A stretch of DNA of 64,000 nucleotides from Glaucostegus cemiculus (Eukaryota): assembly GCA_976551045.1 (NCBI GenBank), contig CDPCPM010000060.1, forward strand, positions 3,534,001 to 3,598,000. The letters are read 5' to 3'. The notes under the pieces are model-generated. The model searched no databases. It saw only the letters and a list, made by a program, of their open reading frames with translations, and was not told where the DNA came from. Numbering within the stretch: the first letter of the stretch is position 1; each line of letters opens with the position of its first letter. This document shows positions 11,767-38,787 of this stretch, piece after piece. A program made the translations under genes and the position numbers.

Positions 11767-12080
11767 GACAAAAACACAAAATGCTGGAAATGCTCAGCAG
11801 GTCAGGAAGCATCTATGGAAAAAGAAACAGAATTAACATTTCAGGGCCAATAAGAGAAGGGCAGAACAAACAGAATATTTCTGGTAAGGTGAGTTAGATG
11901 AAATAATGTGATATTCTCTTTGTCCTAAGCATCCCTCCCCCATTTTCTCTGCTACTGAAAATTAACTTGCTTTCTCACTTTTTGAGTTCTGACAAAGGGT
12001 CTCTGACCTGAAACATTAACTGTTTCTCTTTCCATAGATGATGTCTAATCTGTTGAGTATTCCTATTTTTTTTCTGTTTT
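11767..12080. mobile_element. Short PLE derivative with inverted pLTR ends
   Basis: Left end aaaatgctggaaatgctcagcaggtcagg...aattaacatttcagg; right end cctgaaacattaactgtttctctttccatagatg...tgagtattcc is its reverse complement. Confidence 0.75.
11985..12021 (+). ncRNA. Decayed minimal type-I hammerhead ribozyme motif
   Basis: AGUU-CUGACAA-AGG(GUCUCUGA)CCU-GAAA-CAUU-AACU: stem I AGUU/AACU, stem II AGG/CCU; core G8>A, and the stem III palindrome ACGU>ACAU. Confidence 0.6.
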
Positions 12081-12703
12081 TGTTCCCCACGTCCAAGAAT
12101 TTTTTTTTTGGTTTTCGTAAAATGATGATGCTGGGGAAGTGGGTCTGGGACCAGAGAGACTAACCAACATAATGGATATACAGGGCTTATTTTGAGAGAG
12201 GCTATCAACTTGCAGTATACACTTTGGTTAATCTTGGCCTAATATGTCAGTATTGTATGTCATGGGCATTTTAAAGGATCTGTTACCTAACACGGGCTGG
12301 TACTTCTACCACCCAAAGGTTGATGTTGGGAAGAAATGGCAAATGGGAGTAGCTCAGGTAGAAATGTTGGTCAGCATGGACGAGTTGGGCCAAGGGACCT
12401 GTTTTTGCACAGTGTAACTCTATAGATCTATGGCTCTAAAGGGCAGCTGCTAGGCAGCAGTAATGCAGTAGTGAGGAAGGTCCCAATAAGTCCTGGATGC
12501 TGCATTCAAATTCTGCCAGAAGCTTCAGAATCATTGTGACAATAGCAGGCTTTCTCTCTTAGCAAAATATTTATCATCTGTATTTAAATTATTACGCATA
12601 TTAGCACATGCTTTTTGAACACTTCAAATTATTTTAGTGAAGTAGTATGGCACTTATTGAAATTATTGAATCTATGTTCTTCTCCTTTACATTTAACAGC
12701 AGA

Positions 12704-12946
12704 ATGTCTTCCAAACAAGCTGCCTCTCCGTACGCTGCTTCTGCTGATGGGGAGGAAGCAATGGTCCAGGAAAGATTGGTACGGGAGAGGGAAAGGGAGG
12801 AGCTCAATGACCAGCACACAGCCTCACACCTGCCCCTGCATACAATAGTAATCAACAAACCTCATGCTGAGGAGCTACCACCTGTTGTCAGCAGCCTCCA
12901 ACCAGACAGTGATTGGGACAACATGGCTACCACCCAGCACAGAGCA
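12704..12946 (+). CDS. SOX6: SOX6 first coding exon (exon starts about 12700; ATG at 12704; 81 codons; phase-0 donor)
   Basis: Translates [22 protein letters not shown]...[32 protein letters not shown]...QHRA, closely matching the vertebrate SOX6 N-terminus as I recall it ([20 protein letters not shown]...SHLPLHPIMHNKPHSEELP...DADWD). Pyrimidine tract plus CAG acceptor at 12697-12699; donor GCA|GTAAGT at 12946/12947. Confidence 0.96.
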
Positions 12947-25690: not shown

Positions 25691-26329
25691 ATTTTGAAAT
25701 AAATGATTAGCATGTGCCCAGATCAAATTTATGTGCTTCTGTAGCTGTGATTTTGGGTGTTATCTTCTGATGTTCTCAATTTCTCAACAACATTTTGCAC
25801 ATTTGACAGTACCTTCATTCTCTCTCACCTCTCTTCTTAATTCATGGGATTGTTCTTGTGTTCCTAAGTATGCAACTATACCACATACTTTGTTTATTGT
25901 CCCTGTGCTGTCACTTCCAGGCTCTGACTAACGACCTGTCCTTTGCCCCTCTTCACTTTCAGGCAAATGCAGAATCACGATGCCAGTTGTTGCACTAAGT
26001 TTCTGTTACATGCTGCAGTGCTCAGCTCTACCAACCCCACAATCAGAATTGTAATCCTTATTCACTCTTCCGTTGGGATTTAAATTAAATCATCTGGATA
26101 TTTACAGATGGGATGTCCTCCCACATGTTGCCACAATATGTAACAAGACTCAAGAGATGAGTTGGAGGGAATTAAAAATTGCTAATTCCTGATCACATAA
26201 TTGTTAAAATTGCAATCTGCTTTGAAATTAGTGAGAAGGCCAAAGATCTTCAAGCAGGAAATCATTCCCTATGTTACCACAAGAAATTGAGGAAAAGTGA
26301 GTAAATATAAAGATAGACAAGACCTAAAT

Positions 26330-26935
26330 TACATCAGTACGTTTCTGAGATTTGGACTACCTCCAGTGGGCTTCCCAATGCACTGGAATGCCACCAACAT
26401 ATCATCCATAAAATCAGTTAAATTCACTGGAAGGATAAATGAACCAATTACAATGTCCTCTCCCAGGCCAACATCCTCCGTATTGAGGTCTTAGATGCAC
26501 TGAGTTACACTGTGCAGGCTATATCATTCATAGTCCCCATACCAGATTCAGATAATCAATTCCAAAAGCTGTCATTTGAACAGATCATCGGGCAAAAGAT
26601 TCAAGAATGTTCTCAAAGCTTCCTTAAGGAAATGTAACATCCACACTAATTCCTGAGAGTCTCTTGCACATAGCACTTCAAAGTGGAGAAAGCACTCAGG
26701 ATGGTGTTGAGAGCCCCTGATCCATGAATCCAACAACACACTTAAGCCCTACCAAAGTTATGGAACTAATAATACTAACAACACTCATAACTACCCACCT
26801 ACTGGCCCTGTCAGACACCTCCTGCTCCATCTGTCGAAGAATCTATGGTTCCCACATTGAGCTCATTAGACACCTCAGTATCCACAAAACCAGAGTGAAG
26901 CACATCACCCTCAAACCTGAGGGATGGTTTAAGAA
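26330..26935 (+). mobile_element. RTE-clade LINE 3' fragment with terminal C2H2 finger
   Basis: IHWKDK..N..VLSQANI, KRFKNVLKASLRKCNI and CSICRRIYGSHIELIRHLSIH (ORF 26724-27005). Confidence 0.75.
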
Positions 26936-28972
26936 AGAGACGATAGGTGTACCACAGTCTCCAGAATATATTTGTACTTCCCTTGGCCACAAATGCACCT
27001 TATAGAATCCAGATGGCTGAAATAAATATGAGACTCTCATCTTAAGATGTTACATCATTATTTGCTAGTTTGGAGTTCTTTTTTTTGTAGAAAAAAACAT
27101 TTTTTTTACACTTATGTGCATTTTGAAAACTTCTGCTCCAAAAGTAGAGTCTCATTCAAAGGGAGTGTGAATCAGAGAATCTGTGTGACTATTTTGTTGC
27201 TCTCCTGAGTAATGACACAATGTTCCATCTTCGCAGTTCTCTAATCCTCTCTCCTTGCAAAATGGTGACATTTATATATTGTGCTGAAATTGTTGGCAAT
27301 GCTTATTTATTGTCTTTTTCTCTTGTCACTTATTTCTCTCTCCTTTTCTTCCCTGAAAGTATTTCTGATGGGTTGTGTTCCAGAGGTATCAGAAGCTCAC
27401 TCAACTACTTATCATATTGATCTTGTCAGCATGTCTCTATATGCCACTCAACCAAGGCAATATCATGGCTGATCCCCACCCTGTACTGATCCAACAATTT
27501 TGCTGGATAGTGATCGGTGATGGGAACTTTGGTTAAAACACCCTTTCTTTCCACAGCTTCTGCGTTACCTATGCTCAGAGATCAATCAGTGAGTCCCAGA
27601 TTTTACAAGGCAGCCATTTCTCAACTTTGCTTACTAGATGATCCTATTGTTGCAGTAGAAACAGCCCAAATGGTTGTACTTAACCATAGACTGGCCACAG
27701 GCAAGGCCACATGATGAATAAACGGGATTTTGCACTTAACAGGAGATTACTTCCATCAGTTATCTGAATATTGATTTTTATCTGCATTCAACAAGTGGAA
27801 AGAGGAAGCTAAAGGCAGTAACAAACTTTTGCTGGAAATAATGTGATAAATTTTCATGATTTATGACAGAGTCAAAAGCCAAAACTGAAGATTGTATCAC
27901 TACCTTGTAAATGTCTGTCAATTATTCTGCATGTAGAAGTGTTAATGATTATATAGAATTGTTCTTATTTGCTTTTCAGTGACAGAACCACTTCAATTAC
28001 ACCAGGATTTGAGTCACATAGCTTGATGTTGTGAATTTTGATTTCAATAAAAATTTAGGATGTTCTGCAGAAGTGGCAACTTTTTTTTAATCGTGTTTCT
28101 CCCAAAAGAGAGATTTGGCAGAAATGGGACTGCATTTTTCAACTACTTTTCAAATCTTTTTTCACAGAGGGAGTGGAATGTATTGTGTACTCCTAACAAT
28201 ATGAGATGTATTAGGGAAGTCCGTATCTAATCAAAACATATTCGGTGCTTGTTATTTGACCTCTTCATGTTAACTATGCAAGGAATCCAGTAATAATTTT
28301 ATTATTGCACCCTTGGGCCAAGATCTTGAAACTGTTTGACCACAATGGAAGTCAGATTGCAAATAATTGTTTTTTTAACTCTTGGCAGCAATATAACTTC
28401 CAGTTTAATGACATCATCAGATTGGAGTTCCCTGGAATGTTACTTGTTATTTGACTTACACCTTATAACCTAATTTGTGCAAAAAATTAACATTAGAAAT
28501 ATATAAAATAACACAAGGTAAGGTTGCAAAATAGAGTGGCAATCTCCACATATTGTATTTGAAATTTTCTAAATTAGGTAAAGAATTGTCTTTGTACCCA
28601 CAATTAATTATACTGGAAATTTATTCAGAAAGGTAACATTTATAATTACATTACACTTTGCAACCAGCGACCAGAGCAGTTCTTTCCATATCCTGTATTC
28701 GTGAAATCAAGGAATGAATTGTCACCACTTGGGAAGACGAATCATAAAAAAATACTTTTCTCACCTCATGCCTGCAACCTTAATCTATCGGTACTTTTCT
28801 CTTTATTTTCTTAAGTGTTAATACTGTTAATGAAGTGCCATTGCATTAGGCCAGTTGTATTTTGCTTATGTTCTCCTAGTTTACTGACCTGAATCAGGTA
28901 AATTATATTTTGCCTGTTGTTGAAGTAAGCCTTTGAATGGGATATTACACATCCATTATCGTGCATCTGGCC

Positions 28973-29380
28973 TTTTGTAATACGATTGATTCATATTTAG
29001 CCTGCAAACTTATGAGTGTGTTGGGGCTTTTTTGCCATTATTGTCTGCATTGATTCCAGTATCAGTCTGTCAAAGTTTCTTGTAATTGTTCTCCTTCTCT
29101 ACGTAAAAGCACAATTCTTTTATGTGTTTCATTGCTGATATGCTTCAATTCAATGAAAGTTCAATCCTTTGGAGATGGATGAAATCCTTTGAATGTGTCA
29201 TGCCACGTTTTAATATCAGCAATGAAACACATTAAAGAATTGTGCTTTTGTGTAGAGAAGAACAATTACAAGAAACTTTGACAGACTGATACTGGAATCA
29301 GTGAAGGCAATAATGGCAAAAAAAAGCCCCAACACACTCATAAGTTTGCAGGCTAAATATGAATCAATCCTGTTACAAAA
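28973..29380. repeat. Long inverted repeat: arms 28973-29141 and 29213-29380, 71-bp spacer
   Basis: Manual alignment of the left arm to the reverse complement of the right arm: 8 substitutions and 2 small indels over about 168 bp. Confidence 0.97.
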
Positions 29381-29500
29381 AGTTTCCTTCTGCATTCTAA
29401 AGACGTACGGGTTAGTAGGTTAAAATGGGTGTAATTGGGCAGTGCGGGCACATTGGGCCAGAGGGGCCTGTTACTGTGCTGTATAAATAAAGTTTTAAAG
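29381..29500 (+). mobile_element. 5'-truncated V-SINE 3' half
   Basis: agtttccttctgcattctaaagacgtacgggttagtagg...gggccagaggggcctgttactgtgctgtataaataaa starts mid V-domain. Confidence 0.75.
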
Positions 29501-29509
29501 TTTAAAAAC

Positions 29510-29765
29510 TCATCCTGAACTCCACAACTGGTGCCAAACTTCTGGATTCTCTCCCTGAACCTCTCAACCTCCATTTCTCATTCCTCCTTTGAGACGTCCT
29601 TCAAACTCATTTTGGTTACCTGCCCAAATATTTCTTTGTTGCTGAGTATTCAGTTCTGCCTAAGTATTCAGTGCTTCAGATAAGGTATTCAGATAATACC
29701 TAATCTGAAGCACCTTGGCTGTACATTAAAGGCACCATAAAGATATAAGTTGCTATTAATTGTTA
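29510..29765 (+). mobile_element. L2 LINE 3' tail
   Basis: ctggattctctccctgaacctctc...tgaagcaccttgg...attaaaggcacc...ataagttgct. Confidence 0.6.
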
Positions 29766-31899
29766 TTAAGTTACATGTGACCTTCTTGTCAATACTTTTA
29801 TTCTGATGGAAAACCCCTAGTACCGACTCCCTTCCCCCATTCAAGTGTCTAGATGAATTTCATACAAGGCTTTGGCTCATCACCTGGATTGCTCATAAAA
29901 GAGAAAATTTGTAATTCTAGTACCTCCTGGTTGCCAGTTAGGGAAAAACATTGGCAGAAGCTGGGAATCAGACAGCGATCCAGACGGCACTGGCCTGTTT
30001 ATCTGCAAAATAAATCTGATGTATTCCAACACCACTTTAGCAAAATGAAAAATTAATTTGCAGTAATTAACTGTCAGAAGCAACATTCAAAGAGTAACTG
30101 CCAAAAAAACAATCTAATGGTATTCTGTGAGCCCCAATATGACCAAGGCTGGCTGATGATAAAGTTAATATTTAAGAAGGTGAAAACTGAACCGGCTCTG
30201 GGGTGAATTGTGGAGAAATATAATCAAGGATAGAATATGTATAGGTTCTATTATAGCATTATCTGGGAAATCACTACAGCTTCCTTGTGGCATTATGGCA
30301 CCTCAATTAATATATAAAAAATATAGGACCTGAAAACTACTGTTACTGATAGGAACAGACAAATACTTAAGATATTTCTATGACATTCCTGTGCCTGTAT
30401 TTAGCTGGAGATGTTATCCAATTTAAAATGGAATGGGAATACTTACGTTCAAGAGCAAACCAAGCAATAATATGTCAAGCCAACATTTGTCTAACTAGCT
30501 ATAATCTACAGTGGAAGCTGCTAATCTAAAAAAGTTAGTATTGAAAGAAAAGAAACTTCAAAGGGACTGTTTTATATTCCATATGCCTTTATGTGGAGAA
30601 AAGAAGTTTATAAATATGCACAAGATAAATTCTGTGAAGACTGGAAATCTTCACAATACTGTACTCCATGAGCTGTTAGCAGGGGCACATCTCGAGACAA
30701 TCACCAGTTGTTACCAAAAGATCAATGCAGTAAACGACACCCTTATTGAAGCTTGGAGTTTGCTAATTTTCCAGTGCAAAGAACTATCTGCCTTGCACTC
30801 TGATACATTATAACATTCAATATACGTGCTGAAGACCACACTCTGGCTTGGTTCAGCTGCCTCAAAAGCTCAGTGGGGAAATGTCATAGTTTTGGACCCT
30901 CCCACCAATGTACACTAAAACCAGTGTAAAATCCCTCGTGCTGCAGTAAATCATTTTAATGTAATATAATTTTAAAAGGAATATGTGCTATGGAGTGAGG
31001 CATCTTAGAGCACTATTTCCTAAATTGATCTCTTTTACACAAGCTAGATTATATTTGATTATGTTGTATTTTGTCTTTACAAATCCTGTGATTAATGTTA
31101 AATTTTAGGAAACAAAATTGCTGGGACAGGGATAATAGCCAACTGGCTCTGATGAGTGGAAGAGCCAAATTAGAGATTGATAATGGGTTAGGAAATTTGA
31201 TTTCGTTTTAAGATATGGCATAATTTTCTTTGATAAGACTGAAAAGGAAATACTTTGAACAAAAAGTAATTCCTTAGACTTTCCTTTAAGAGACTGTTGT
31301 TAACAATGGTGTTGTTAGAACACTATGCAATGAGTAATTGTAGAAAAGCCAATTCTACTTCACCAGCAAGGATCACCTTACACAATTATGAATTTTGAGG
31401 CCATTTTCAACATTAAATTATAAATAGATATTTGAATATTTTACTCTATACCAGAAGAATGGAATGATTAAGCTGGCAAACCTCGATATAACAACATTGG
31501 AATTTTCCTTCTGGCGATTACTTTCAGCATTTGGGTGATTGCATTACCTATCATACCTTCAGTTAAGTGGTTGTATATTACAATATATAATGGCTTCAAT
31601 TGTTCTTGCACCAGTGTTAAAATATTTTCCTTAAGTACCCATCATCCCCATTGTATCTCTCTGAAGAGATTTAAGTTGACTGGGTTTTAAAATACTGACT
31701 TAAGATAAAGCATGTTTAAATAATTGAGATTGTTTTGACTAAAAGTGTAGCAGTGAGAATTTAAGTATTTTCCTTCATTCGTGATGTATTGCTCTGTGGT
31801 GAATGAGTTCAGAACACTGGATATCTTTGATAATAAATACTCTTTGAAATATTCTTATATCAAATCCCGATGCAATATATAAAGAGACAAGGGATGGAC

Positions 31900-32490
31900 T
31901 TGAACAGTATCATTTTTGATAAACTGGTATATCTTGTTTAGACAACATTTGGATTATTGCATATTGCTCTGCTCATGTTATTACAAAATGGATAGGGAGG
32001 CACAGTTGAGGATACACATTAATGATATCAGAACAGCAAGGTTATACCTATCAGGAAAGTGTGAGTAGACTGAATCTGTTTTCTTTTGAAAAGAGAAGGC
32101 CAATGGGATGAACTAATAGGGGTCTTTAAAACGTTCAATGGTTTTGCTAGTTTCTGAGGGAGTGTTTCCATTTGTGGGAAGATCAAATCTAGAAACCATC
32201 AGTAGGTAAGACTCCAAAAAACAAATAGGGATTCAGAGCAAATTGATGTGCTTAGACGTTGGCACAGAAAATGTTGAACTTGCTGCCATTGGGAGTGGAA
32301 GATGTGAATAATACAGATGCATTTAAAGGAAACTAAGTAAGCATGTGAGGGAGATTATTATAGTGGCTTCACTGTTAGAGTTAGAAGAAGAAAAATAGGA
32401 AGAGGCTTATGTACAGCATAAACACCAACATATAATGGTTGGGAAATGGCCTGATTCTTTGATGTTTTTTTCTGTAACATTCTATGTAAT
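31900..32490 (+). mobile_element. CR1 LINE 3' fragment
   Basis: LV..HLDYC and RLNLFSFEKRR-like translation; ends tggttgggaaatggcctgattc. Confidence 0.65.
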
Positions 32491-32639
32491 TTCCCTTGGT
32501 TTATTATCAATATAGTCTATGTTGAAAACTACAATTTATACTGTTTGCTAATAGTAGTGAAAAAAAGATGTAAGTATAAAATTAAAGCACAGAGGAAAAT
32601 CACTGATGCTCATTTGGGATTTTGGAAGATCTTCACGGA

Positions 32640-38576: not shown

Positions 38577-38787
38577 GATTCTGACAACAACAAAGTCTGT
38601 TCCTTGTACTCCTTCCGCAATGCAACTACCTCACCGCACAAGCCAGAAGAAGGGGCCCGCGAGCGCACTGACATGATCACTAGTGCAGCTTTTGGAACAC
38701 CTGAGAGGCGCAAAGGAAGCTTAGCTGACGTGGTGGACACATTGAAACAGAAGAAGCTCGAAGAAATGACAAAGACTGAACAAGACG
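38577..38787 (+). CDS. SOX6: SOX6 second coding exon (211 nt; phase 0 in, phase 1 out)
   Basis: Acceptor tttttctctttttaatag|GAT at 38576/38577. Translates [70 protein letters not shown]; donor G|[13 protein letters not shown] and QKKLEEMT favour SOX6 over SOX5 (QRKMEELI). In frame with the previous exon. Confidence 0.97.

Follow-up and report, generated by a model that had tools for sequence, protein, structure and literature searches.

How did a long, nearly perfect inverted duplication come to lie in an intron of SOX6, and does the hairpin that it predicts for the RNA matter to the gene? We addressed this question in a 64,000-nucleotide window of the Glaucostegus cemiculus genome (contig CDPCPM010000060.1, positions 3,534,001 to 3,598,000), which is the whole stretch of DNA analysed and whose numbering is used below. 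The foldback comprises a single-copy left arm (28973-29141, + strand), a loop or spacer of 71 nt (29142-29212, +) and a right arm (29213-29380, -) that is an inverted copy of 28973-29141. In the alignment of arm against arm, 158 of 166 bases are identical; there are 8 substitutions, five of them transitions and three transversions, and 2 indels (TT inside an A-run, and CTC at 29091-93). All five transitions (28981, 29044, 29050, 29103 and 29104) form G:U pairs on the + strand, the sense strand of SOX6. A first-pass annotation of this DNA had described the arms in these terms, and its coordinates and counts proved exact.

Its assignment to a SOX6 intron, with + as the sense strand, was likewise borne out. 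The coding exon upstream of the foldback (12704-12946, +, from the ATG to the donor) is 94% identical to ray SOX6, the next coding exon after it lies at 38577-38787 (+), and the SOX6 coding span covers ~290 kb of the + strand; the hairpin sits in a 26-kb intron, on the sense strand. Folding, suggested by the annotation as a check, gave -276 kcal/mol for the + strand (z -34; 0 of 100 shuffles equally good) and -264 kcal/mol for the minus strand. Judging from the letters, SOX6 pre-mRNA is predicted to carry a 166-bp duplex as a by-product. We surveyed 161 tiles from 12 contigs of this genome, the window among them and 1.664 Mb in all; no other inverted repeat with a short spacer scored as high as the foldback. 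A 72% direct repeat, 28922-28950/29178-29206, was taken as chance. The same intron holds, ~430 bp before the left arm begins, a conserved non-coding stretch that covers at least 28200-28540; it differs from two related species (organisms B and C) at 1 site in ~340 nt and from a third (organism D) at 3 sites in 260 nt, against 4-5% in nearby sequence, and is a candidate enhancer.

The annotation had recognised no transposon motif in the arms. This holds inside them, where the arm sequence was found at only two places in the 2.85-Gb genome (DNA search, and 21-mer search with one mismatch, which may miss old, diverged copies), but a fragment of a high-copy SINE adjoining the right arm had been overlooked. 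Alignment with eight copies identified a 5'-truncated tRNA-headed SINE at 29381-29507 (+; 3' end approximate) with the tail TAAATAAAGTTTTAAAGTTTAAAA. Its start at 29381 (29381-29382) is one base past the right-arm end at 29380, and contact is through the truncated 5' side. Relative to a full copy of 254 nt, it begins at position 130 and so represents the 3' half; full copies have an A- and B-box-like head and a tail of AAAGTTTT repeats. We take the family to be V-SINE/HE1, with a tail presumably like the end of a CR1-type LINE. It has 2833 candidate copies in the genome (search with 28700-29700) and covers ~1.4% of the sample, in which all repeats make up 22-27%. The missing 5' half of the SINE was found neither in 26000-32500 nor through that genome search. 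The parts therefore follow in the order flank, left arm, loop, inverted copy of the left arm, truncated SINE, flank.

Both junctions would require only short microhomology, 1-2 nt at 29141/29213 and 1-2 nt at 29381-82. In addition, the loop ends in GTTTTAA (29207-29213, +), which is identical to the SINE tail unit and is a possible, weak target-site match; 1.4% of random intron positions give an equally good match (empirical 0.014). The SINE family showed no excess of target-site duplications (TSDs), with 3/46 against 16/230 controls and 1/39 against 11/195 controls, and TSDs were rejected as a regular trait of it. Because the family lacks regular TSDs, the target-site reading of GTTTTAA is weak, and the match may be chance.

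We compared the locus with related species, as the annotation had advised. The relatives used, organisms A-E, were the best matches among the sequencing runs listed, none of which contained half of the words of 26000-32500. Left arm, loop, right arm and arm-SINE junction are all present in contigs of organisms B, C and D, where the left arm runs on from the 5' flank; the junction in organisms B and D rests on contigs with loose ends. The flanks of these three are ~4-5% diverged from this genome. Since all three carry it, the foldback is real and predates the split of these species. A contig of organism A holds the left arm and loop with 0 substitutions, and its cover stops short of the right arm. 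Every relative with cover of the site carries both arm and SINE, and an empty site was seen in none. Organism E gave 0 contigs here, which does not show that the foldback is missing from it. Over 120 nt, the right arm of organism B differs from the left arm of this genome at 3 positions without a gap, and the organism B left arm has this genome's left-arm letters at 28981, 28983, 29044, 29047 and 29050. Because the organism B arms match the left arm in this way, most mismatches and both indels arose after the split, in the right arm of this genome; read on the sense strand, the right-arm transitions in this lineage are mainly A>G. The changes are lopsided: in this genome nearly all lie in the right arm, and in the organism D contig one piece bears 10, the arm portion of the second piece no more than 1, a pattern that may reflect clustered mutations or swapped inner arms. 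In a single organism D contig, of depth 4, the loop appears inverted (joint 29122-29229, opposite strands); this was not accepted as real, because the ~68 identical bases shared by the organism D arms would let a short-word assembler swap the inner arms.

We favour an origin in one event, with a probability of roughly 55%: the right arm would be an inverted copy of adjacent intron DNA made during insertion of the SINE. The left arm would be the template, original single-copy intron DNA, and the loop would be original DNA as far as the broken end. The upstream DNA end, cut during insertion, would fold back upon itself, prime on the microhomology at 29141/29213, be extended by 168 bases of flank and be joined at 29381-82 to an incomplete SINE copy, with priming and joining both falling within the insertion event. 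This origin is favoured because the SINE begins one base past the arm end by its truncated 5' side, because the loop-end GTTTTAA equals the SINE tail unit, because contigs of organisms B, C and D bridge the arm-SINE junction, and because the rarity of such structures fits. Among 118 SINE matches in the 1.664 Mb, 115 were scorable and a single one, the present locus, had a 5' foldback; among the 39 closest copies fetched, none did. Whatever its timing, the structure is very probably a scar of fold-back synthesis.

The survey also yielded comparable structures elsewhere. Four single-copy foldbacks have arms of at least 75 bp: the present one, which abuts a SINE; one in tile L037, which overlaps a low-copy repeat; and those in tiles L017 and L121, which lie in LINE reverse-transcriptase fragments. 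L017:4927-5216, itself in a SOX6 intron, has arms of 82 bp (94%) in dead LINE reverse-transcriptase sequence, and its left arm is an inverted copy that sits where the 5' end of the LINE fragment appears to be; L121:7789-8359 has arms of 194 bp (89%), also in dead LINE reverse-transcriptase sequence. Fold-back stubs whose arms measure 60-90 bp form a repeated family, presumably of Penelope-like inverted termini, which occurs in the window at 838-2314 and 11768-12083, at L029:1414-1567 and L108:76-259, and about 25 more times in 1.66 Mb. Close to the SINE, 29645-29713 contains three GTATTCAG repeats and, among them, a small hairpin (29671-29713) whose arms are 19 bp long. At least 21 letters of 29664-29705 are missing from organisms B and C, so that the region resembles a templated insertion that this lineage acquired recently. 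Nine single-copy foldbacks of the survey, all short, lack a repeat at the ends of their arms. They count against a single-event origin, since they indicate that an insertion is not required for a foldback. The absence of an empty site in relatives, the lack of regular TSDs, the rarity of so deep a 5' cut (2 of the 39 closest copies) and the younger look of the arms also count against it.

These points bear on a second reading, in which a full-length SINE came first. A double-strand break close to the 5' end of this SINE would later have been repaired by fold-back synthesis and end joining, so that flank was copied backwards and the SINE 5' half was lost. The chemistry would be the same and the outcome equally neutral. 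Age speaks for this reading. At 8 of 111 sites, the SINE copy at 29381 departs from the majority letter of its family, whereas the arms differ from each other at 8 of 166, about half the number expected for arms of the same age as the SINE (Poisson 0.016, assuming a rate of 5%), and this genome and organism B have at most 1-2 arm mismatches in common. The foldback thus appears to be of more recent date than the SINE; alternatively, conversion may have reset the arms, or the mutation rate of the SINE may be higher. Against the organism B orthologue, the SINE has 4 differences in its first 30 nt. The gap, moreover, is based on small counts and assumes equal mutation rates. The uncommonly deep truncation and the missing TSDs fit this second reading, as does the position of the L017 and L121 foldbacks inside dead LINE fragments. 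According to the accessible parts of two papers, breaks in yeast can give rise to fold-back inverted duplications (Yu et al. 2024, PMC11724301), and vertebrate germ lines acquire proximal duplications through repair (Pace et al. 2009, PMC2671141). Against it, the break must end inside a retroposon whose 3' part was retained, in a genome sample of which this family is only ~1.4% and all repeats 22-27%, and the agreement between loop end and tail unit must be chance (0.014). We regard two separate events, the main rival reading, as possible and rather unlikely.

The remaining question is whether the duplex has since been kept for its pairing. The annotation had put the chance of five G:U transitions at about 1/32. 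That figure was post hoc and for one strand. In repeat copies within SOX6 introns, the G:U-type share was 0.54 (368 non-CpG transitions) and the transversion share 0.35 (567 non-CpG changes); at this measured sense-strand bias, 5/5 has a post hoc p of 0.046. Moreover, the changes lie in clusters (28981/83; 29044/47/50; 29103/04), so that their independence is not clear. The relatives, as the independent test, gave a different picture. Firm uncompensated changes in organism B are transversions at 28998, 29049, 29062, 29130 and 29217, an A:C change at 29021 and G:U changes at 29029 and 29054 (right arm); those in organism D are transversions at 29001 and 29085 and an A:C change at 29016. The firmly placed transitions of the relatives thus comprise 2 G:U and 2 A:C, and the pooled firm tally is 7 G:U to 2 A:C (7/9, p 0.14 at the measured bias). 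Organism B 29111 and organism D 29091 were kept out of it, as their strand depends on the orientation of the inner arms; with both included, the tally is 9:2 (p 0.057). Flank transitions tallied by hand were 3 of the G:U type and 10 of the A:C type (Fisher 0.012 against 9:2), which would point to a genuine skew; this tally was set aside, because its polarity is unrooted and the repeat-based estimate, drawn from more changes, is to be preferred.

Of 19 arm changes that could be firmly classed, 12 disrupt a pair, against a neutral expectation of 65%, in a small sample that leaves out ~11 differences near contig ends; we also count this agreement towards the insertion-time explanation. The arms have tolerated 10 transversion mismatches and 2 indels, and their divergence, when summed, is close to the 4-5% seen between species in the flanks. 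Within this small sample, the arms decay near-neutrally, with no sign of selection for pairing. Of the RNA reading in the annotation, the long predicted hairpin stands, whereas the G:U argument fails in the relatives.

Retention of the duplex for an RNA-level role in SOX6 pre-mRNA, as an ADAR substrate, a source of endo-siRNA or a splicing modulator that would favour G:U-compatible changes, appears very unlikely. The all-G:U transitions of this genome and the pooled 7:2 would speak for it, as would persistence of the foldback in four lineages, the conserved stretch 430 bp upstream and two fully compensated pairs between this genome and organism B (29125/29229 and 29126/29228). Both pairs, however, are the two bases of one CpG, and the even split in the relatives, the tolerated mismatches and the flank-like divergence count against such a role; at gathering score, Rfam gave 0 matches in the window. 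Together with organism B arms that are identical over 29063-29110, where this genome has two mismatches, the compensated pairs suggest occasional arm-to-arm conversion, which CpG decay can mimic; the organism B contig is collapsed, with a depth of 21. ADAR has a known neighbour preference, a yardstick for the contexts of A>G changes, and here the 5' neighbours are mixed (2/7 = G) and carry no such signature. In one RNA run of organism B, of which ~18% was read, 0 reads fell on the hairpin, which at that depth says nothing about processing. We give equally little credence to a broader proposal, that SINE insertion made a unique-sequence 166-bp duplex of SOX6 pre-mRNA in one step, that arm-to-arm conversion held it in register through the life of a ray clade, and that a sense-strand A>G excess (~7 A>G : 1 T>C) records ADAR activity or G:U selection. 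If true, it would mean that CR1/SINE insertions in the germ line can give rise to new vertebrate hairpins that are edited or diced.

Two other explanations, an assembly artefact and a decayed non-autonomous DNA transposon (a MITE, or a fold-back element whose terminal inverted repeats are long), are suggested by the overall shape and by the repeated fold-back elements of this genome. Together they were rejected as extremely improbable: an arm found at two places only, in searches that may miss old, diverged copies, does not fit a MITE, the arms are 5% diverged, the outer ends lack a TSD (GGCC against AGTT; flanks ...CTGGCC and AGTTTCC...), the right flank is a SINE, and contigs of three other species (organisms B, C and D) bridge the junctions.

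Among known systems, the predicted intramolecular duplex of more than 100 bp in pre-mRNA resembles intronic inverted-repeat dsRNA edited by ADAR, such as inverted SINE pairs, from which it differs in that its arms are unique sequence. A pre-mRNA duplex of this length, if formed, is expected to be ADAR-edited, as inverted repeat pairs commonly are, and this does not imply function. The closest parallel in the mechanism is human L1. In the text available to us, somatic L1 insertions include short foldback inversions of ~52-220 bp located 5' of the target site, in 3 (+1 combined) events or 0.3% (Nam et al. 2023, PMC10191854), and a model for them has a resected 3' end self-anneal on ~2 nt, undergo synthesis and be ligated to the reverse-transcribed end (bioRxiv 10.1101/2024.12.14.628481). 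As far as these sources go, the SOX6 locus agrees in that 168 bp of upstream flank recur inverted and directly attached to a retroposon on its 5' side, in 1-2 nt of microhomology and in its rarity among insertions (here 1/115 and 0/39). It differs in being germ-line and fixed across several elasmobranch species rather than somatic, in its 71-nt spacer instead of a small hairpin, in lacking a reliable TSD, and in its insert, a tRNA-headed SINE (with a tail that we assume to be CR1-type-LINE-like) and not L1. A literature search of partial coverage for a similar SINE/CR1 case returned nothing relevant.

The locus also resembles the fold-back inverted duplications at double-strand breaks and the repair-mediated duplications described in the accessible parts of PMC11724301 and PMC2671141, in that local DNA was copied beside a break by repair synthesis, with fold-back priming at one end and end joining at the other. 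The yeast fold-back events given there are mostly 5-34 bp (PMC11724301), whereas the SOX6-intron arm is 168 bp. In the duplications of Pace et al., insertions split a repeat so that both halves flank the duplicated DNA (PMC2671141); here the SINE has no 5' half flanking, none being found in 26000-32500. A single neutral scar changes little, and its use lies in a dated paralogous pair of arms with which conversion and strand bias can be measured. If arm and SINE did arise in one event, the locus shows one birth route of long unique-sequence intron hairpins, and gives a fixed germ-line SINE example, in a cartilaginous fish, of a by-product known here otherwise from somatic or experimental human L1. 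Overall, we consider the SOX6-intron foldback a germ-line, SINE-linked case of a known class of fold-back duplication.
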